Shown: positions 2,562 through 16,452 of the stretch, piece by piece | How the letters are laid out: each line of letters begins with the position of its first letter | How positions within the stretch are numbered: the stretch's first letter is position 1 | Virus record (IMG/VR): IMGVR_UViG_3300010882_000009 | Origin: a virus | Taxonomy: Duplodnaviria > Heunggongvirae > Uroviricota > Caudoviricetes | Length of the DNA stretch: 16,489 bases | Reading direction: 5' to 3' (one strand) | Position numbers and translations under genes: made by a program | Notes under the pieces: generated by a model | Database searches by the model: none | Told to the model about the DNA's origin: nothing | What the model saw: only the letters and a program-made list of their open reading frames with translations

Positions 2562-2635
2562 AATAGTATATTTACTGAGCCGATATTTGCGTTTTATAGT
2601 ATGATGCGAATATCGGCTTGACTAAATTTATTATT
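2562..2635 (+). promoter_or_regulatory. long RNA stem-loop (family B-like) before the RBS of 2655
   Basis: GAGCCGATATTTGCGT/ATGCGAATATCGGCTT with G-U pairs; TGAGCCG shared with the 989 and 3052 hairpins. Confidence 0.65.
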
Positions 2636-2654
2636 CTAAAAGGAGGATTTTAAA

Positions 2655-3017
2655 ATGGAAAAGGCAAAACATGTTATAAAACTAGGTGTGGTTGAAGGTA
2701 GACACGAAATGCCTGTATCTTGCTATGTATACAACAAAATAATAGACGTTACTGATATAGACGAGTTATACGAAAGGGCACATAACAATATAATCTATAT
2801 TGGTGGATGGCATACATTAAACGCCAGAATATGGGTTGGTGCGACTGCGACATGTGACGGGTATGCCCCTCATGAGTGTATATTGCACCTGTATGTATCC
2901 GGGTTAACAGTAGCATTAATAGCAGTTATTAATGCTTGTAAAACGCTAGGGTTAGAGGTTGTTCTCTATCATTATAGCAAGGATACAGACAGCTATTATT
3001 CGCAACAGGTGTTATAA
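2655..3017 (+). CDS. hypothetical phage protein, paralogue of 586-951; possible CARF/SAVED-like fold
   Basis: RBS AAGGAGG; C-terminus LHLYVSGLTVALIAVINAC...VVLYHYSKDTDSYY. Confidence 0.88.
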   Translation: MEKAKHVIKLGVVEGRHEMPVSCYVYNKIIDVTDIDELYERAHNNIIYIGGWHTLNARIWVGATATCDGYAPHECILHLYVSGLTVALIAVINACKTLGLEVVLYHYSKDTDSYYSQQVL

Positions 3018-3051
3018 TCAAAATGAGTTAGATTCAATTCTAAGTATAATT

Positions 3052-3140
3052 ATAATTTACGTATTTGAGCCGTATGGCAATTTCTAAATTTTAATTTTTA
3101 AATTTTGGAAAATGCTATACGGTTTTATTGTGTAAATTAT
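3052..3140 (+). promoter_or_regulatory. long RNA stem-loop (family B), copy of 989-1060
   Basis: Same stems, different loop; one A-U pair becomes G-U and one pair becomes a mismatch. Confidence 0.75.
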
Positions 3141-3166
3141 TATAAAAAATAAAAGGAGAATGAATC

Positions 3167-6390: not shown

Positions 6391-6418
6391 TCTTAATAGA
6401 ACTTGTATTCTATTAAAA
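6391..6418 (+). repeat. dif-like junction site 1
   Basis: TCTTAATAGAA-CTTGTA-TTCTATTAAAA. Confidence 0.85.
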
Positions 6419-6443
6419 TATTAATATAAAGGAGTGGTAAGCA

Positions 6444-6674
6444 GTGGAAGAAACAATGAAAGATTGTGGCATGTATTGTTTAATTGAATCAGGATATAAT
6501 TATGGAAATATTCCTGCACATTTGGTTGAAAGACTACGCAATTGCAAAGAATGTTATTGTAAAGAATGTACTAATACATATGACAATTGTATTTGCGATT
6601 ATTGTATACATTGTGGCAATATAAGTAGGGAATGTTATTGCGATATGGAAAATGTATTAAAAGGAGATGTTTGA
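6444..6674 (+). CDS. Cys-rich small protein (putative Zn-binding)
   Basis: RBS AAGGAG; multiple CxxC motifs. Confidence 0.75.
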   Translation: MEETMKDCGMYCLIESGYNYGNIPAHLVERLRNCKECYCKECTNTYDNCICDYCIHCGNISRECYCDMENVLKGDV

Positions 6675-6675
6675 T

Positions 6676-6876
6676 ATGAGATTTAGTATTGGTGATAGGG
6701 CAGCAATAATTCAGTTAGAAAGTGGTAAAACATACGGAGTAGCAGTTGCAACAAAATCCATGGCTGAGCTTAGCCAACGTCAACAGCCTGCAACAATAAG
6801 CAATACACACTATGACAAAGGTTTGTATGAAGTAAATGAGTCTGAGTTCTTTTTTAGCGACGAAATGTTTGTGTAG
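6676..6876 (+). CDS. hypothetical small protein
   Basis: AAGGAG at 6661 fits ATG 6676; begins MRFSIGDR, a pattern common in small phage beta-barrel proteins. Confidence 0.65.
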   Translation: MRFSIGDRAAIIQLESGKTYGVAVATKSMAELSQRQQPATISNTHYDKGLYEVNESEFFFSDEMFV

Positions 6877-6881
6877 CAATA

Positions 6882-6956
6882 ATTATAATTGTATATTGCA
6901 AGATGTGGCTATGATAACAATATTTATAGCCACATAATGGAGTTTATAATTATAAT
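6882..6956 (+). promoter_or_regulatory. family A stem-loop
   Basis: ATTATAATTGTA-TATTGC-[ATGTGGCTAT...ATAGCCACAT]-AATGGAGTT-TATAATTATAAT. Confidence 0.78.
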
Positions 6957-6971
6957 AAGGAGTGTTTTAAT

Positions 6972-7271
6972 ATGCGTAAATTACAGTCAGTAATTTTAGA
7001 AAAAGGAATTGAAAATGTGAGGATTCAATTCATTGGTAATGCAAGCTTCACAGAAACAGTTGATGCAATATGCCGTTTAGAAGCATATCCTGGTAGCGAG
7101 GATTTTACTGCCGTGTATATACACAAAATAACTGTGATAGAAGTTAAAAAAACAATGACAAAAATACTTTGGGTTCCAATTAATAATAGCAAAAATTTTT
7201 ACATGTCAGATTTAGAGGCAATGATTAATGCCGGATATGTTGTGATTATGAGCAATGATGATTTATTGTAG
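6972..7271 (+). CDS. hypothetical protein
   Basis: RBS AAGGAG, 99 aa. Confidence 0.82.
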   Translation: MRKLQSVILEKGIENVRIQFIGNASFTETVDAICRLEAYPGSEDFTAVYIHKITVIEVKKTMTKILWVPINNSKNFYMSDLEAMINAGYVVIMSNDDLL

Positions 7272-7330
7272 TGCTGTTTAGTACGGCGCTATAGCATATT
7301 GAATAAAAATTAAGTGTTTGGAGGCTAAAA

Positions 7331-7582
7331 ATGTTTGATGAAAAATTATGGTATATTAAGTGTGAAAAAAGTTTTGCTCCATACTATTTAAGATACACTG
7401 ATGACAAACAAGTATACAGTGGATTTATAGTTAAGAGCGGCGAAATAATGCACGTAAATGATAAAATGCTCGTACATGATAAAATGTATGATATGTGGGA
7501 AATATCTTATCCTAATGGCAGACTATTTTATACACAGCTTTGCCAATTGAAAGAATGCTGTATTACACTCAATCAGTACTAA
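7331..7582 (+). CDS. hypothetical protein
   Basis: RBS GGAGG, 83 aa. Confidence 0.8.
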   Translation: MFDEKLWYIKCEKSFAPYYLRYTDDKQVYSGFIVKSGEIMHVNDKMLVHDKMYDMWEISYPNGRLFYTQLCQLKECCITLNQY

Positions 7583-7638
7583 ATTAAACCAAGTTAGGAG
7601 TGAACTATATTATGTTTTAGGGAAGATGCGAGTAAATA

Positions 7639-7666
7639 TTTTCATAGAAAATTACTTCTATTAAAA
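7639..7666 (+). repeat. dif-like junction site 2
   Basis: TTTTCATAGAA-AATTAC-TTCTATTAAAA. Confidence 0.88.
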
Positions 7667-7684
7667 TCTTTGGAGGGATTTAAA

Positions 7685-7807
7685 ATGGAAAAAATTAAAA
7701 TAGAATTAAAGTTAATTAAAACACTGTTGCTTTTAAATTTGACAATGAATATGACGAGTGTTGTGTTAATAATAATCAATTTCCTTTCACTGTCCTCATA
7801 CTGGTAA
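7685..7807 (+). CDS. small hydrophobic protein (40 aa), or a frameshifted gene extending to 7863
   Basis: RBS GGAGG; MEKIKIELKLIKTLLLLNLTMNMTSVVLIIINFLSLSSYW; the -1 frame is open 7720-7863. Confidence 0.55.
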   Translation: MEKIKIELKLIKTLLLLNLTMNMTSVVLIIINFLSLSSYW

Positions 7808-7854
7808 TATATGTTGTAAAGAATATGACTAACAATAATTGCAGAGTCAATATA

Positions 7855-7882
7855 TTTTCATAGAAACTGCATTCTATTCAAA
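7855..7882 (+). repeat. dif-like junction site 3
   Basis: TTTTCATAGAA-ACTGCA-TTCTATTCAAA. Confidence 0.88.
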
Positions 7883-7899
7883 ATCTAAGGAGGTTTAAA

Positions 7900-8100
7900 A
7901 TGTCTAACGATAGAAGAATACTTATTATTGACATAATAGAATCACAGACAAAATGTGTTGATACACAACGTATTTTATTTGGTGCGTTAATGTTAGATGA
8001 TAGAATATGGTGTAAAATTTCAGATAAAGATACTAACGAAAAGTCTATATTATCAATAATGGTTCATATTGTTAATTGCTTAGATTTAAAATTAAATTAG
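7900..8100 (+). CDS. hypothetical protein
   Basis: RBS AAGGAGGT, 66 aa. Confidence 0.75.
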   Translation: MSNDRRILIIDIIESQTKCVDTQRILFGALMLDDRIWCKISDKDTNEKSILSIMVHIVNCLDLKLN

Positions 8101-8113
8101 TGGAGGGTTTAAA

Positions 8114-8455
8114 ATGAATCTTATTTTTGCATTGATCGCTGTAGTATTTACAACTGTTTATGCGGATGTATCTGCATTCCCATGTTATTACGAAAGCAAA
8201 GTTTATTCAAATTATGAGCATAGCTATATATATGGCTATGTATCAAGCGCAGACAATGAATACATTATAATTGACACTGTAGATGGTAATGGATGGGCAG
8301 TTGAAAAGGGTTTTGCCGATTTATCATACGGTGATTGTGTTGCTATATTGTTTGACAATATGGGAACACCAAGCTATATTTATGACGACGAAATAATTGA
8401 CATTATTGTTATTAATTCTGGATGCACAAGATGCTATAATGTATTAATAAACTAA
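8114..8455 (+). CDS. putative secreted or membrane-anchored small beta-barrel phage protein
   Basis: RBS GGAGG; hydrophobic N-terminus; DGNGW...GD...FDNMGT..IYDDEII pattern. Confidence 0.8.
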   Translation: MNLIFALIAVVFTTVYADVSAFPCYYESKVYSNYEHSYIYGYVSSADNEYIIIDTVDGNGWAVEKGFADLSYGDCVAILFDNMGTPSYIYDDEIIDIIVINSGCTRCYNVLIN

Positions 8456-8496
8456 TCAGCAGGAGCCAAAAAATATTAATATAGGAGTGTGCGTAA

Positions 8497-8718
8497 ATGA
8501 ATATACCTGAATGTCTAACCTATATTTATGATACAAAAGACAAAGGATTAAAGCCGTGTCCGTTTTGTGGCAACCATAAAAGTTTAATAATTGAAATTTA
8601 CATTTTGGACAGTTATTCAGTTGTATGTGATTATTCAAACAATGGTTGTGGAGCATCATCTGGACGTAGACCTACGGAATATGAAGTGATAAATACATGG
8701 AATAATAGGGTGAATTGA
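8497..8718 (+). CDS. Lar (restriction alleviation)-family zinc-ribbon protein
   Basis: LKPCPFCG...VVC...GCGA...INTWNNR is the characteristic Lar_restr_allev pattern. Confidence 0.85.
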   Translation: MNIPECLTYIYDTKDKGLKPCPFCGNHKSLIIEIYILDSYSVVCDYSNNGCGASSGRRPTEYEVINTWNNRVN

Positions 8719-8725
8719 GGTAATT

Positions 8726-8917
8726 ATGAAACTATGGATTTTAGTAACATTATTTTTTAGCATAATGCTTTATTTATACGGAAATACCAAAACAGATTTG
8801 CAGGAAAAATACAATCAATCTGAAATGATTCTTGCATCGTTATTATACGGTGGAATTTTATCTGTTGTAGTTTGTATTCTTGTGGAAATAATTGTTTTAA
8901 TTGTTGCAAAGTTTTAG
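8726..8917 (+). CDS. small two-TM membrane protein
   Basis: RBS GAGGT; two hydrophobic segments. Confidence 0.75.
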   Translation: MKLWILVTLFFSIMLYLYGNTKTDLQEKYNQSEMILASLLYGGILSVVVCILVEIIVLIVAKF

Positions 8918-8947
8918 AATTTAAGATATAATAATAGGAGTTGTTTT

Positions 8948-9344
8948 ATGTTTAGTATATTGCTTAAATGCATATATGGAACATACTCAAGAGTAAAATA
9001 TATACTTGCATACAAGAGATTTGACACCAGTATATACGAAAAAATATCGAAGAGATTTTGACATGTCTCTTGTAAATCGTGCGATAGAGATAGTAGAAGG
9101 ACGAATGACGCTATTTGACTGCTTAGACGAGTTTGTGTGTTGTGTAAATATAGATACAGATTTGATAGTCATGGAGCATGTATACAAAGGATCAACATTT
9201 GGTTGGAATATATATGTGAGATCCGGACAAGATTTAAAGCTTATTGAAACATATGATGTGGAAAATGATGCAAATAGCGTTGTAGAAATGATATATGACG
9301 GGCTTGCTTTCGGAGCAACATATTTTATGCTTCCAGATATTTAA
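8948..9344 (+). pseudogene. frameshifted gene, or two coupled ORFs (8948-9061 and 9063-9344)
   Basis: RBS AGGAG precedes ATG 8948 (37-aa ORF); the long ORF is in the +1 frame; A6 run at 9039-9044. Confidence 0.5.
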
Positions 9345-9378
9345 ATAATAATATATATAATAAAAAGGAGTGTTTTAA

Positions 9379-9819
9379 ATGGGAAATAAATTTAACAATG
9401 GTGACATTGTAACGCTTATTAAAACTGGTGAGACTGGTACTATTGCCATATTTCCTAATCGCGTAAGTCCAATTATGAAGTTTTCCCCATCTAGTTACGA
9501 CAATATGGATGGTGTATATTATAACGCAGCCATAGTTAAAGAAGATGAAATAGCTAATGCTTCTACTGAGGAAAAAATTCGCCATATTGAAATAAAGCAT
9601 AACAAATACTATCAACCAATACAAACCCATGTCATAGGCGATTATCAAATTATTGAGGATGAAAACGGGATGTTTTATCCACACTTTAATTTTAATCCAA
9701 TAAATGTCGCCCATAATTCTATTAATTCAGCATTGATAGGTGTGATATGCAAATCGCACTTAGACAGCGATGAAAAACTTAGCGAATATGTATTGTATCT
9801 CTTGGGCATTGAGTGGTAG
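9379..9819 (+). CDS. hypothetical protein, paralogue of 13387-13839
   Basis: RBS AAGGAG; shared EEKIxxIEIxHN...IQTHVIGDYQII. Confidence 0.88.
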   Translation: MGNKFNNGDIVTLIKTGETGTIAIFPNRVSPIMKFSPSSYDNMDGVYYNAAIVKEDEIANASTEEKIRHIEIKHNKYYQPIQTHVIGDYQIIEDENGMFYPHFNFNPINVAHNSINSALIGVICKSHLDSDEKLSEYVLYLLGIEW

Positions 9820-9930
9820 ATTTTTATAATGCTTTATAATATAAGTACGAAATAATAAAATAGTTATAATACGTTAAAATCACATTGCACACTACATCAT
9901 TATTCTAAGCAACAATGTAATATAATCTCA

Positions 9931-9998
9931 TATTTGATAATTGAGAGTGTCGTTCATCATATGTAATAGAATGGACGACTCCCCTGAGTTATTAAATA
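9931..9998 (+). promoter_or_regulatory. long intergenic stem-loop before the RBS
   Basis: TATTTGATAAT/GTTATTAAATA outer stem, GTCGTTCAT/ATGGACGAC inner stem, G-U pairs. Confidence 0.55.
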
Positions 9999-10026
9999 AT
10001 ATTTACAAAATAATAGGAGTGATATT

Positions 10027-10425
10027 ATGGATTATTTAAAAATAATCAATACAAATGTTAAATCTGGATTTATTGCATTAAAATTGCAAAAATCAAATGG
10101 ATTATGGGAAATTGACACAAATCAAGAATTTATCGATGAACATATATTTAGTACACTGGATTATTTATATGAACATTATTATCCTGATTATGACGAGAGG
10201 GTATGTGCAATTTATAATTGTGATGATAAATTTGAATATGGACATGTTAAATTCCCACTTCCATGTGAAATAAGTAGCATGAAAAAAGAAAACGTTGAAT
10301 GTAGTCCAATTGCAATATTTGCAATAATATGTATAGATAACGCCTATAATTATGACAACGGAGAAGGGTATTGTATTTATGCTGTATATAAGTGTGATAT
10401 AAAACATGAGCTAAAAATTTATTAG
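10027..10425 (+). CDS. hypothetical protein
   Basis: RBS AGGAGTG, 132 aa. Confidence 0.85.
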   Translation: MDYLKIINTNVKSGFIALKLQKSNGLWEIDTNQEFIDEHIFSTLDYLYEHYYPDYDERVCAIYNCDDKFEYGHVKFPLPCEISSMKKENVECSPIAIFAIICIDNAYNYDNGEGYCIYAVYKCDIKHELKIY

Positions 10426-10467
10426 ATTAAGCAATGATAATAATTTTATATCAATAGGAGGGTAATT

Positions 10468-10743
10468 ATGCAAAAATTTGAATATCGTGGCAAAGTCACT
10501 ACACATTTATTTTTTGGTAGTGGCGACGGAATGGATATGCGCTTACAGTCTTGTAGTAAAAACAAATTCCCGCGCGATCGTGTTTCAATAGTGACAAAAG
10601 ATGGGGAATTATACTCTAATGTATTTTTTGTTGATGCGAATAAATATGGTGTTGAACATTACACAACTGAAGACCCTGATTGTGGAGAAATAATTTTTAC
10701 AACATTTGATAGAATTGATGTGTTTACGCACAAATCTATTTGA
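10468..10743 (+). CDS. hypothetical protein
   Basis: RBS AGGAGG; the stop codon lies inside junction site 4. Confidence 0.82.
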   Translation: MQKFEYRGKVTTHLFFGSGDGMDMRLQSCSKNKFPRDRVSIVTKDGELYSNVFFVDANKYGVEHYTTEDPDCGEIIFTTFDRIDVFTHKSI

Positions 10744-10809
10744 ATAGAACTTACATTCTATTAAAATATTTACGGTGTTAATTTGCATAGAACATAGCTT
10801 TTATCAAAA
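10739..10809 (+). repeat. tandem dif-like junction sites 4 and 5
   Basis: TTTGAATAGAA-CTTACA-TTCTATTAAAA (10739-10766) and TTTGCATAGAA-CATAGC-TTTTATCAAAA (10782-10809). Confidence 0.85.
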
Positions 10810-10841
10810 AATAAAAAATATAATAAAGGAATGGTGAGTTT

Positions 10842-11081
10842 ATGGATTTTGCCTATGTAGTTAAATTAGCAGACGAAAGTGGTATGGTAATGTTTGTTAC
10901 ATTATCTCCTGACAATATGTATGATAAAATATATAAACATCTTCTTGGCTACATGAAAACTGTATTATTATCAAAAGAAAAAGACGTGAGTTTAGGTTCA
11001 TTTGAGGACTATTGCTACTATCCTGATGGAGATTTTGAAAATAAGATTTATTTGCAAGTTGTCAAAAGCAGTATTAAATAA
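10842..11081 (+). CDS. hypothetical protein
   Basis: 79-aa ORF, GGTGAG upstream. Confidence 0.75.
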   Translation: MDFAYVVKLADESGMVMFVTLSPDNMYDKIYKHLLGYMKTVLLSKEKDVSLGSFEDYCYYPDGDFENKIYLQVVKSSIK

Positions 11082-11120
11082 TTTTAAATAAAAATATTAT
11101 AATAAAAAGGAGATATTTAT

Positions 11121-12008
11121 ATGTGTGTATTTAAAAGTGGAATTATTTTAAAGGATAAAATTTTTATACCAGACTACGATCACCATACAGATATGCTAAA
11201 AGAATTAAATATAGAGGACAATTCCAAAAATGCTCAGTCTATTTTTGTACGGGCAGAACTTATTCCACAAGATAATAATGTCTTTTCTGATATTGCCACG
11301 TGGAGATTTAATGTTGACCAAGATATAGTACCTGACTGGTTTGTTAAAGATTATGAAAAAGAAAGAATGATCGCCGCAGTAAAAGAATGGGGAAAATCAC
11401 GTATTTATATTGGTGTTGACGGATTAGAATTATCAACAGGAGCTAATTATTATTTAAAAGATTGTAAAGATGTTCTATTGCAAGGTAATGTAAATGTTGC
11501 AATGTTGCAAAGTTCAAATGTAGAACAGATGTTAGGTAGCTCCGCTGTAGAAGTGATGAGAGATAGCTCAACTGTAGGACATATGTGGGAAAGCTCAACT
11601 GTAGAAAAGATGTTGGATAGCTCAACTGTGCGTCGGATGAGAGGAAGCTCAACTGTAGGAGCTATGTGTGGAAACTCAATTGTAGAAAAGATGTGGGATG
11701 GCTCAACTGTGCATAAGACATTTGATAATTCAACTGTGTATCATATGGGTGCTAGCTCAACTGTGCATCAGATGTTGGATAGATCAACTGTAGGAGAGAT
11801 GTTTGATAGATCAACTGTGGGGGAGATATTTAATAGGGCAACTATAATTAAGATGAGAGATAGCTCAACTGTATCAATACCAGATGATTATTTTTCAAAA
11901 TATGTAAAACAAGATAGCATTATACTGTATGATAATGCTGTAATAAAAGACAGTCGCACAAAAACAATTTATCATAGTGGAGATTGGAAACTAGTTTTAA
12001 AGAACTAG
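11121..12008 (+). CDS. phage protein with a 9-aa tandem repeat (putative beta-solenoid)
   Basis: RBS AAGGAG; 14 repeats of MxxSSTVxx at 11502-11879; N-terminal MCxFKSGIIL...DHHTDML...FVRAEL domain. Confidence 0.9.
   Translation: MCVFKSGIILKDKIFIPDYDHHTDMLKELNIEDNSKNAQSIFVRAELIPQDNNVFSDIATWRFNVDQDIVPDWFVKDYEKERMIAAVKEWGKSRIYIGVDGLELSTGANYYLKDCKDVLLQGNVNVAMLQSSNVEQMLGSSAVEVMRDSSTVGHMWESSTVEKMLDSSTVRRMRGSSTVGAMCGNSIVEKMWDGSTVHKTFDNSTVYHMGASSTVHQMLDRSTVGEMFDRSTVGEIFNRATIIKMRDSSTVSIPDDYFSKYVKQDSIILYDNAVIKDSRTKTIYHSGDWKLVLKN
11502..11879 (+). repeat. 27-bp coding tandem repeat, 14 units
   Basis: Recurrent AGCTCAACTGT core with 27-bp period. Confidence 0.9.
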
Positions 12009-12041
12009 AGAGAAATCACATTAGTTTTAGCCAATTGGTAG

Positions 12042-12069
12042 TTAACATAGAAACTGACTTCTATTAAAA
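12042..12069 (+). repeat. dif-like junction site 6
   Basis: TTAACATAGAA-ACTGAC-TTCTATTAAAA. Confidence 0.85.
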
Positions 12070-12078
12070 TATAATCTT

Positions 12079-12378
12079 ATGGATGGATTAATTATGATGT
12101 TATTTAAAGACTTTCTTGCTTTTGTGATAAGAGATAAAGAATCTGCGTTATATGAGCATTGGGTACGTGTTGTAATGGGCGGGAATGATGGTAGGATAGT
12201 ATGGGAAGGCAGGGCATGTGACTTTGTGGATGGAAGAGATTTTGGATTTGAAATTACACTTGCATGTAATCTTGGAGACTTCCCTATAGAATCATTTGTT
12301 GGATTTGATCGTGAAAATAATAAGGACGATAAGATGTTGCCAATATATAATAAGCCATATTTAGTTACAGTATATTAA
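12079..12378 (+). CDS. hypothetical protein (true start possibly 12094 or 12097)
   Basis: 99-aa ORF; GGATGGA may be the RBS for the downstream ATGs. Confidence 0.78.
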   Translation: MDGLIMMLFKDFLAFVIRDKESALYEHWVRVVMGGNDGRIVWEGRACDFVDGRDFGFEITLACNLGDFPIESFVGFDRENNKDDKMLPIYNKPYLVTVY

Positions 12379-12412
12379 TTCATTATTTGTTTGTTAAAAA
12401 TGGAGGTTTAAA

Positions 12413-12877
12413 ATGACAACAATAAGACAATTGATTAACAAGTTGACAGAAATTAAATATAACAATCTTAATGCTTATGCTTTAAAGCATGCTACAACGC
12501 CTTGGGAAAGTATTGAACAGGTATTATGGATGACTGGCATTGTAAATAGGTTTCTTTTAAATAATGGTATAGAGATATTTTTAGATATGCCACCACCTTC
12601 TAAAGATTTTTTTGCTGGTCATTTTAAGAGTGGAGCATATCGTAAATTAGATTTTTATATATATGCTACACATAATTTTATTCCAACTAAAGAAATTATG
12701 AAGTATGCGACTATATATGGAGATAATTATTTATATCCAAGAACAAGGTTCTTCGGTGTACCAGAACGACTTGTTAACGAGTTTTTAAATCTCAATAGTG
12801 GTATTGATATTGATATGTCAATAGAAAAAACACATAGATCATGGGCAGTTTTGAAGGAATTAAAAACATTTGCATAG
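12413..12877 (+). CDS. hypothetical protein
   Basis: RBS GGAGGT; the TAG stop is supplied by junction site 7. Confidence 0.85.
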   Translation: MTTIRQLINKLTEIKYNNLNAYALKHATTPWESIEQVLWMTGIVNRFLLNNGIEIFLDMPPPSKDFFAGHFKSGAYRKLDFYIYATHNFIPTKEIMKYATIYGDNYLYPRTRFFGVPERLVNEFLNLNSGIDIDMSIEKTHRSWAVLKELKTFA

Positions 12878-12896
12878 AACGGCTGTTTGATTAAAA
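12869..12896 (+). repeat. dif-like junction site 7 (variant right arm)
   Basis: TTTGCATAGAA-CGGCTG-TTTGATTAAAA. Confidence 0.75.
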
Positions 12897-12923
12897 TAAC
12901 AATAATAATAGGGGGTAACGATA

Positions 12924-13343
12924 ATGGAACATAAATATTATTGTGTATATTGTGGCGAAGGATTTAATTATGAACCTCGTCATGGTGGATTAGCTTGTGA
13001 AGATTGCTATTGTTATGAATGCGATGAGTTACATGAAAATTGTAAGTGTGATTATACGGATGACATAGAATGCGAAGACCCCGGTCTTGTGTGTAATTTT
13101 AAAAAGAGCAATAAGCAAATCTATGAGGAAGCAATCATGGAGTATAATAGGAGATATGCCTTTGATAAAGATAGCGAAATATACTCAATAAGTACCGAAG
13201 CATTTGATATAACAGGCAAAGACATATCTGGCACATATTTCTCAGTACGAGACTACACACAAGGGTATGGTGTAGATGGAGATGGTATATCACATACGAA
13301 TTTATATAACATTATAGAGGAAATAAGAAAAAATAAATTTTGA
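12924..13343 (+). CDS. Cys-rich (Zn-binding) hypothetical protein
   Basis: RBS AGGGGGT; N-terminal CxxC clusters; stop overlaps site 8. Confidence 0.85.
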   Translation: MEHKYYCVYCGEGFNYEPRHGGLACEDCYCYECDELHENCKCDYTDDIECEDPGLVCNFKKSNKQIYEEAIMEYNRRYAFDKDSEIYSISTEAFDITGKDISGTYFSVRDYTQGYGVDGDGISHTNLYNIIEEIRKNKF

Positions 13344-13365
13344 TAGAAGTTACTTTCTATTGAAA
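13338..13365 (+). repeat. dif-like junction site 8
   Basis: TTTTGATAGAA-GTTACT-TTCTATTGAAA. Confidence 0.85.
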
Positions 13366-13386
13366 ATAAAATTGGAGGAATTATTC

Positions 13387-13839
13387 ATGGATTTTTATAG
13401 TGAAGACATTGTAGTTTTATATGGAACAATTGGTAAAGTTATTATAACTAAACACAAAGAAAAACATATGATGTTTATACCTGCTGGAACAAATGGGAGC
13501 AGTATGTCAATATTACAGGAGTATTTAATAGGTAATATTCGACATGCTACGCAAGAAGAAAAAATAAAATACATTGAAATTGAGCATAACATATATTGGC
13601 ATACAGCAATACAAACTCATGTCATAGGCGATTATCAAATTATTCAAGATATAAGGGGGCTGTTTAATCCGTATATAAATTTTATATCAACAAATAAAGT
13701 ATATACATCAATTGAGGCCGCTATGATTGGTGTATTGTGCCATAAGTTGATAGGAGCTGATGAGACATTAAGCAAATATATTTTTAAAATATTTGGAATA
13801 AAGGAAGGTTTTGGTGGCGAACTGATAAATGGAAACTAA
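13387..13839 (+). CDS. hypothetical protein, paralogue of 9379-9819
   Basis: GGAGG RBS at 13374 gives start ATG 13387; shared motifs with 9379. Confidence 0.87.
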   Translation: MDFYSEDIVVLYGTIGKVIITKHKEKHMMFIPAGTNGSSMSILQEYLIGNIRHATQEEKIKYIEIEHNIYWHTAIQTHVIGDYQIIQDIRGLFNPYINFISTNKVYTSIEAAMIGVLCHKLIGADETLSKYIFKIFGIKEGFGGELINGN

Positions 13840-14170
13840 AGTAAATTATCAATTGATAAAGGCGTTTGATAATGGTAGATATTATCCTGATTATCAAGCC
13901 TTCTTAGCTGCGGCATCGTGCCAAGAAGAGCGCGAATATATAGAGCGCATCAAAGATAAGAACATATCGTTTTCATTCAATATGGTTTACGTTACAAAGC
14001 AAGCCTGTTCGCACTACGAGATATTCCAGACACCTTGCAATGAATTCTACCCGTTAGAAAGTTTGCTGGCGCGTATAGGCGATGAATCAAGTCGCAGACG
14101 TTGTACATCCTGTATCTGCCGGACACAATCATATTCTGGTGGCGATATACAGCACTTTCCTATTTTGTGA
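13829..14170 (+). CDS. hypothetical protein, possible Zn-binding (CxH...CxxCxC)
   Basis: Overlaps the previous stop (translational coupling), 113 aa. Confidence 0.8.
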   Translation: METKVNYQLIKAFDNGRYYPDYQAFLAAASCQEEREYIERIKDKNISFSFNMVYVTKQACSHYEIFQTPCNEFYPLESLLARIGDESSRRRCTSCICRTQSYSGGDIQHFPIL

Positions 14171-14175
14171 ATTAA

Positions 14176-14203
14176 TTTGCATAGAAAACAAATTCTATAA
14201 TTA
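14176..14203 (+). repeat. dif-like junction site 9
   Basis: TTTGCATAGAA-AACAAA-TTCTATAATTA. Confidence 0.82.
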
Positions 14204-14215
14204 TGAGGTATTAAT

Positions 14216-14473
14216 ATGAAAATGAGAATACATAAATGCATACGATGCGAGTCAAAAAATACTCGTAATTGTCAAAGAGCAACTAAATTAGGATTTGAAG
14301 AACTCTTAAATGATTTTCCAAACTCTGACCAATCAGACTATATTTTACTTGCTCATATTTGTGATGATTGTAACATGATTTTCTATACAAAAGCAAAAAT
14401 TGAAATATCATATTTAGATGAGCAAGATATTTTATTGGATAAGAATGAAGCAATTAGATTTGGAATAATGTGA
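14216..14473 (+). CDS. zinc-ribbon protein (CxxC...CxxC)
   Basis: RBS GAGGT; CIRC and CDDC motifs; bracketed by sites 9 and 10. Confidence 0.82.
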   Translation: MKMRIHKCIRCESKNTRNCQRATKLGFEELLNDFPNSDQSDYILLAHICDDCNMIFYTKAKIEISYLDEQDILLDKNEAIRFGIM

Positions 14474-14482
14474 ATGAATAAA

Positions 14483-14510
14483 TTTGCATAGAAACACTGT
14501 TCTATTAAAA
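14483..14510 (+). repeat. dif-like junction site 10
   Basis: TTTGCATAGAA-ACACTG-TTCTATTAAAA. Confidence 0.9.
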
Positions 14511-14543: not shown

Positions 14544-14619
14544 ATAATCAAATATTAACTTTTGCCACAAATAATATATTGTAAATAAATATTTGTGGCT
14601 TGCGTTAGTAATTGATTAT
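14544..14619 (+). promoter_or_regulatory. long stem-loop (family C)
   Basis: GCCACAAATA/TATTTGTGGC inner stem, ATAATCAA/TTGATTAT outer stem; GGCTTGC motif shared with 16361-16428. Confidence 0.6.
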
Positions 14620-14653
14620 AATAAATTGCCAATATATGAAGGGAGCAATAATT

Positions 14654-16348: not shown

Positions 16349-16360
16349 TTATAAAATCAA

Positions 16361-16428
16361 ATATTCTATTTTGCTTCCAATATTAAAGACTAAATAAAAT
16401 ATTGGCGGCTTGCTGTAGTATTGAATAT
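16361..16428 (+). promoter_or_regulatory. long stem-loop (family C)
   Basis: CCAATATT/AATATTGG inner stem, ATATTC/GAATAT outer stem, GGCTTGCTGTAGTATTGA. Confidence 0.5.
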
Positions 16429-16452
16429 ATAATTTAAAAGGAGATTATTTTT

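Follow-up and report, generated by a model that had tools for sequence, protein, structure and literature searches.

What purpose is served by a palindromic site that recurs, always in the same 28-bp frame, at one gene junction after another of a phage genome? The question is raised by a stretch of 16,489 nucleotides (hereafter the window) from the IMG/VR record IMGVR_UViG_3300010882_000009, a virus of the class Caudoviricetes, in which ten sites, each composed of two 11-bp arms around a 6-bp spacer (11-6-11), lie within 8.1 kb. A first-pass annotation of this DNA had read them as dif-like recombination junctions of an integron-like gene-cassette array, with an operator for a dimeric phage regulator as the main alternative. 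The sequence comparisons reported here make it probable that the ten palindromes are recombination joints with individual 6-bp addresses, which would serve the exchange of genes among related SPbeta-like phages. Searches with the site pattern, the DNA and the proteins returned no relative of the window phage, and the site design was therefore tested in its nearest match, the junction sites of SPbeta-like phages.

Ten junction sites and their probable family

All ten sites start where they had first been placed and carry the spacers first given for them. Two hundred shuffles returned a mean of 0.01 matches (at most 3 mismatches), and in a scan of the window with a position weight matrix the ten sites scored 25.8–33.5 bits, the next-best position scoring 8.6, so that there is no eleventh copy in the window by this measure. 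The core ATAGAA-N6-TTCTAT is perfect in eight sites, as claimed, the exceptions being those at 10782 and 12869; the arms are complementary at 7–10 of 11 positions, and position 1 is T and position 28 is A throughout. The outer arms had been described as asymmetric and co-oriented. Leave-one-out scoring indeed favors the forward strand in 8/10 sites, but with p = 0.11, and the sites at 6391 and 13338 are nearly symmetric; a common orientation is only suggested.

Every site lies at a position compatible with a gene junction, as do only 11.9% of window positions (P = 6e-10), which bears out the earlier statement that none is found in a gene interior, and 9 of the 23 junctions in the window are occupied. 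All ten fall between a stop codon and the next ribosome-binding site (RBS). That they sit mostly on or just after a stop holds for six of them, with a stop within 10 nt, whereas the other four lie 34–57 nt past it; the three stops said to lie inside sites are there (Table 1). On the other side, 8/10 sites end 13–33 nt ahead of a start codon. The spacers are all different. This is what chance would give and is no evidence on its own; uniqueness of spacers within one genome is weak evidence (match probability 4e-4 per pair). A high G+C content of the spacers (25/60, against 0.24 in intergenic DNA; p = 0.002) was also considered as a signal, but was dropped, since comparison with the window as a whole gave p = 0.06 and SPbeta showed no excess.

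In SPbeta, an unbiased count of palindromes returned TAAAA-N6-TTTTA as the top word, with 34 copies, most of them between a stop codon and an RBS. When sites were compared in the 28-bp frame (32/34 from SPbeta and 15/24 from record G017), T was found at position 1 in 23/32 SPbeta sites and A at position 28 in 31/32. The window sites share with these junction palindromes the T1/A28 frame, the 6-bp gap and the location between stop and RBS, and conform to the core ATRRAA-N6-TTYYAT in that frame; they differ in the inner arm, which is ATAGAA and not ATAAAA, in better conserved outer arms (TTTKM / TAAAA) and in their higher density. Intermediate arms are found in three places: Geobacillus virus E3 mixes ATAAAA, ATAGAA and ATGAAA arms within one array, site 5 of the window combines one window-type with one SPbeta-type arm, and G017 contains the exact window core ten times (control pattern, zero) and 24 sites at one mismatch. 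G017 is itself SPbeta-like, with homologues of the SPbeta terminase, portal, tape measure, polymerase and YomM. From the common frame and these intermediate arms we infer that the window site is an arm variant of the SPbeta site family, with A changed to G in both arms. The final spacer base is A in 13/15 plus-strand G017 sites, 18/32 SPbeta sites and 4/10 window sites, and may mark a strand preference.

G017 has no spacer and no protein in common with the window and is thus not a close relative of the window phage. Exact-pattern scans of viral, metagenome and genome collections (one viral scan covering 44/64 parts of its collection) gave single-copy matches, and blastn of the window against phages gave none. 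Sites were counted in 37 of 40 records picked from the pattern scans, and G017 alone had an array; none was present in G003, G005, G007 and G023. Four unrelated phages (L048, L049, L055 and L120) carry other repeated palindromes, CCACA-N10 (8 copies), GATAG-N5 (6) and GTACA-N5 (7), with a nested set in L120, and these are probably operators.

Homology breaks and spacer retention in SPbeta-like genomes

The comparison set consisted of seven SPbeta-like genomes of shared ancestry, and counts made on it overstate the number of independent events. Each genome carries 30–40 sites, and 21–28 spacers are common with SPbeta, where 0.52 would be expected per pair, with their circular order kept. Among 500 pairs of sites with the same spacer, both flanks differ in 191, one flank in 180 and neither in 129. 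For plus-strand genes at 65–134 kb, with gaps of up to 250 nt, homology breaks at 17/17 junctions that hold a site and at 27/74 that do not (Fisher, 6e-7); when only gaps of at least 25 nt are counted, siteless junctions break in 17/36 cases, against the same 17/17 at sites (1e-4). Exact matches of at least 1 kb have 15 of their 106 ends at sites, where 1.1 would be expected, and of 114 pairs with homology on one side only, 87 lose it no more than 7 nt from the site.

The spacer itself is largely retained through these replacements. In pairs chosen by one flank alone (pairs with flank identities of 0.6–0.8 being excluded, as were sites less than 300 nt from the end of a record), it is identical in 60/75 cases where the downstream side has been replaced (22/30 by distinct spacer pair), and in 81/86 where the upstream side has been replaced (24/27 by distinct spacer pair). 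Fifteen addresses are kept under both kinds of replacement, and in 161 distinct pairs the same spacer stands between flanks that are unrelated on both sides. The spacer is thus kept whichever flank is replaced, which would not be expected of an element moving together with the gene downstream of it. Joins of unlike spacers are a minority (5/30 upstream-anchored spacer pairs). In one hybrid site, the left flank of the SPbeta site at 87599 is joined, at the left arm adjoining the spacer, to the following site's address, as though the module between the two were missing. Between SPbeta (L028, L042, L043) and phi3Ts (W01), fully identical blocks of 18,235, 4,895 and 1,404 bp start or end at junction sites, and resemble recent exchanges between natural phages.

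This pattern fits spacer-matched exchange between phages, and neither an operator nor, in the main, integron-like excision. The first-pass idea of recombination junctions is thereby supported by way of the matching site family of SPbeta-like phages, by the breaks at sites and the retention of spacers, and not in the window phage itself. The integron-like capture, excision and shuffling of single genes that came with this idea is not the main pattern: the order of spacers is kept and the DNA between them is replaced.

Candidate recombinase, proposed mechanism and competing explanations

The enzyme for these sites is likely to be a tyrosine recombinase of the YomM family, predicted to be catalytically intact. 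YomM is present in all seven SPbeta-like genomes. Its G017 homologue is a PF00589 recombinase in which R171, K204, H279, R282, W305 and Y314 are invariant across 30 aligned sequences. The catalytic set of SPbeta YomM itself is less certain, as the C-terminal part of this protein aligns poorly. In named phages, arrays are found in three of four with YomM (10, 27 and 32 sites) and in none of three without it. A clear array, defined as at least seven TAAAA sites and 2.5 times the control, is present in 17 of 34 YomM-family records, with arm variants in G017 and G038; of the remaining records, many are fragments. YomM and arrays are associated, with exceptions. A YomM-family recombinase is also present in W15 and in Lactococcus 949-group records, and phage 949 may use another arm. 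The window holds no YomM-family gene and no integrase among its scanned open reading frames (ORFs), in agreement with the earlier remark that a recombinase gene is lacking there.

In the mechanism that we propose, one phage-encoded YomM-family recombinase would bind both arms and exchange strands at the spacer edges. A need for matching spacers would keep the exchange between two phage genomes in one cell in register; two crossovers would replace a module, and one crossover would make a hybrid. Unique addresses would spare a genome from self-deletion and guide exchange to the identical address in a relative present in the same cell, and rarer joins of unlike spacers would add or remove modules. 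The matching-spacer rule is proposed by analogy with pdif sites, where crossover needs identical or near-identical 6-bp spacers and a module is replaced by two crossovers via a cointegrate (PMC13141974).

Several observations weigh against this proposal. The breakpoint tests concern SPbeta-like genomes and not these ten sites, no relatives of the window phage having been found, and the seven genomes do not count as independent. Many breaks fall elsewhere than at sites (27 of the 74 siteless junctions and 91 of the 106 ends of long matches), and a swap from phi3T to phi3Ts ends at gene borders that have no site. Four laboratory hybrids cross over inside identical blocks of 1.4–18 kb; as several of these blocks end at sites, site-specific and homologous exchange are inseparable there; 15 of 16 junctions were read as homologous by the authors (10.1101/2020.05.06.055103). 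In the genome of the window phage, the paralogue of the gene at 11121 shares DNA from 11086, a junction without a site. YomM is found without an array in G069 (91% complete; one site against one for the control) and in G062 (no site), phage 949 carries it together with only two sites, and the present contig was not recognized among the best 120 of 552 YomM homologues.

It is unlikely that the sites are simply short conserved boundaries for homologous recombination, carried out by a phage annealing protein or host RecA and perhaps stimulated by a binding or nicking protein, with no site-specific strand exchange. A Sak4-like annealing protein is annotated in SPbeta, some YomM phages have missing or weak arrays, and same-address pairs retain identity to the right of the core (0.57–0.79 at +16 to +20), so that the common patch may amount to 20–28 nt; to the left of the core, however, identity in such pairs is at background within about 2 nt. 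The PeSL (promoter early stem-loop) cassettes of T4-type phages offer a precedent, being repeats that border variable modules and drive modular shuffling (PMC2839356). A PeSL combines a promoter with a terminator stem-loop, whereas the window sites are short and weakly folding, have the geometry of a recombinase core and individual spacers, and show no strong sigma-70 promoter with a terminator stem-loop. Nor does short homology account for a gap of strictly 6 bp, for arms that are symmetric, for the A at position 28 or for the co-occurrence with an intact tyrosine recombinase. Quite unlikely, too, is a role as operators of a dimeric phage regulator, for example an MrpR-like dead recombinase, ahead of genes or small operons. 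The fixed spacing and symmetric arms, the short distance to the next start codon in most sites, and the tendency of differing spacers to follow the downstream flank (11 cases against 1) would suit such a role, which has a parallel in SPBRE, the operator of MrpR (YopR): this is likewise a repeated intergenic element of an SPbeta-like phage and is bound by a protein of tyrosine-recombinase fold, with a different sequence and about ten copies, at promoter regions (PMC10516654). Four of the ten MrpR peak regions in SPbeta also contain a TAAAA site, but all ten peaks from ChAP-seq (chromatin affinity purification with sequencing) hold a different, ACAAAWAATATGTAT-like word, and 30 of the 34 junction sites fall outside the peak regions. 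In the window, the SPBRE word has only 3-mismatch matches and none at the ten sites, which lie within a tightly packed run of co-directional genes, three of them over stop codons. Moreover, an unread spacer has no reason to persist when the downstream gene is replaced, and most do. For SPbeta-like sites, then, the MrpR peaks and the retention of spacers weaken the alternative that the first-pass annotation had put foremost.

Action of host XerC/XerD as at pdif modules, or an integron-like array that excises and reorders its cassettes, is very improbable. Integrons are defined by IntI, attI and attC, and attC folds as a long hairpin. The window array resembles them in having small accessory genes between repeated sites of apparently common orientation; it differs in that the window holds no IntI next to the array, in that the sites fold weakly, at −0.5 to −6.8 kcal/mol and with A-U-rich stems (the comparison with attC-type hairpins being judged by folding energy), and in that the order of sites is conserved and not shuffled in the tested family. 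The minority joins of unlike spacers in SPbeta relatives do look like loss or gain of modules, and an emptied module could account for the 43 bp between sites 4 and 5. The term dif-like is apt for the shape, dif consisting of two 11-bp arms around a 6-bp center (PMC2731167, PMC5357621), and pdif/dif modules of Acinetobacter plasmids are likewise bounded by 28-bp 11-6-11 sites. The pdif XerD arm, TTATGTTAAAT (PMC13141974, Table 1), is matched at 5–8 of 11 right-arm positions, but its conserved core TTATGT occurs in 0/10 sites, the inner arms are symmetric, and one strand is favored in place of alternating C/D and D/C orientations; the spacers are unique and ordered, the genome is that of a phage, and the enzyme is likely phage-encoded. 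By analogy, the proposed system would work like pdif module replacement without being a member of the pdif family. Hardly credible, finally, is a function as sigma-A promoters or as RNA hairpins, be it for termination or for processing. Two of the ten sites (10739 and 12869) do fit TTGMAT-N16-TAAAAT, and the site at 12042 fits TTAACA-N17-TAAAAT, but one hexamer is missing in most sites, and three sites end 13–19 nt ahead of a start codon, too near for a transcript that keeps its RBS; against hairpins stand the weak, A-U-rich folding and the lack of a match in Rfam. A LexA (SOS) box, the core of which is GAAC-N4-GTTC, was rejected on finding no match in the window.

Gene modules of the window and meaning for SPbeta-like phages

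The earlier description of sites bracketing one to a few genes applies to most of the nine modules, though one holds 8–9 genes and one holds none (Table 1). A family scan of 34 window ORFs gave a single match, the Lar-like protein, and NCBIfam gave no match for the 20 window ORFs scanned against it. The 295-aa protein has 485 homologues, most of which come from array-free phages some 40 kb in size, and no array of the ten-site type was seen at the 80 loci of this family that were examined. Its paralogue P0002 has the same read depth, and the longest contig listed for proteins of the window, of 225,398 bp, has the length that is listed for P0002 as well. An apparent joint of 10771 to 11086 is accounted for by a copy of the site that is also present on the contig of the paralogue. 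Three termite-gut sequencing runs contain this stretch, and each may be its source; no RNA run is listed as containing it. No site-to-site deletion was seen in contigs of these three runs, which is no evidence, as contigs lose rare variants.

Table 1 Junction sites, inter-site modules and cargo genes of the window
Feature	Position	Strand	Spacer	Remarks
Site 1	6391..6418	+	CTTGTA	Stop 6387 4 nt before, start 6444 26 nt after; nearly symmetric
Site 2	7639..7666	+	AATTAC	Exact consensus; 40-aa ORF begins 19 nt on
Site 3	7855..7882	+	ACTGCA	Start 7900 18 nt on
Site 4	10739..10766	+	CTTACA	Stop 10743 inside; 43 bp from site 5, interval without genes
Site 5	10782..10809	+	CATAGC	Right inner arm TTTTAT, as in SPbeta
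Site 6	12042..12069	+	ACTGAC	
Site 7	12869..12896	+	CGGCTG	Stop 12877 inside; right arm degenerate
Site 8	13338..13365	+	GTTACT	Stop 13343 inside; nearly symmetric
Site 9	14176..14203	+	AACAAA	Stop 14170 6 nt before, start 14216 13 nt after
Site 10	14483..14510	+	ACACTG	Exact consensus; stop 14473 10 nt before
Nine inter-site modules	6419..14482	+		Co-directional small ORFs; 4, 1, 8–9, 0, 2, 2, 1, 2 and 1 genes; nearly all without family match
Lar-like restriction alleviation protein	8497..8718	+		Only annotated cargo gene; PF14354, phrog_599
295-aa cargo protein	11121..12008	+		27-nt (9-aa) repeats; paralogue P0002

Other features of the window lie mostly outside the array. Its first 130 nt are an imperfect (CA)/(TA) microsatellite, into which contigs of the three runs reach 49 nt, and which may mark either the end of a genome or the edge of an assembly. 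A 49-nt direct repeat (218–266 and 335–383; 94% identity, 117 nt spacing) precedes the first gene and is promoter-like. A duplicated block (560–1064 and 2629–3143; 75% identity), not bounded by sites, contains a gene pair of 121 and 120 aa (63% identity) with a conserved hairpin downstream. The 296-aa ORF at 1122–2012 has no family match and no homologue among 5.8 billion proteins, and is followed by a terminator-like stem of 19 pairs (2052–2096). Within the array, the genes at 9379–9819 and 13387–13839 are paralogous (41% identity over 145 aa), with a site directly ahead of the second only. Beyond it, a 76-nt intergenic repeat (14546–14620 and 16355–16429; 76% identity) is followed by a gene start after each copy.

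No description of SPbeta-like junction sites was found in the literature searched, a body without supplements and without the majority of subscription papers, among them the one that first described the SPbeta genome; a search combining YomM, integrase and phage gave no match, and yomM is absent from the text of a survey of SPbeta-like genomes. How phage genomes come to be mosaic at the borders between genes is a long-standing question, for which the usual accounts are illegitimate recombination together with selection, or short homologies. The wider proposal, to which we give an even chance, is that SPbeta-like phages carry an addressed recombination scaffold, made up of a conserved late-region YomM recombinase and dozens of sites, through which co-infecting relatives would swap modules in register without long homology, with the window phage running an arm variant of it. 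With such a scaffold, phages would encode an engine dedicated to genome mosaicism, a natural form of multi-site cassette exchange unlike integrons, pdif modules and PeSLs, and a conserved tyrosine recombinase other than the prophage integrase would be given a role. Genome engineering, too, would profit from one recombinase that serves dozens of spacers without cross-reaction, and from natural arm variants such as that of the window. Because SPbeta gene borders are marked by a site of recombinase geometry, a targeted mechanism of mosaicism becomes testable in B. subtilis with existing phages.

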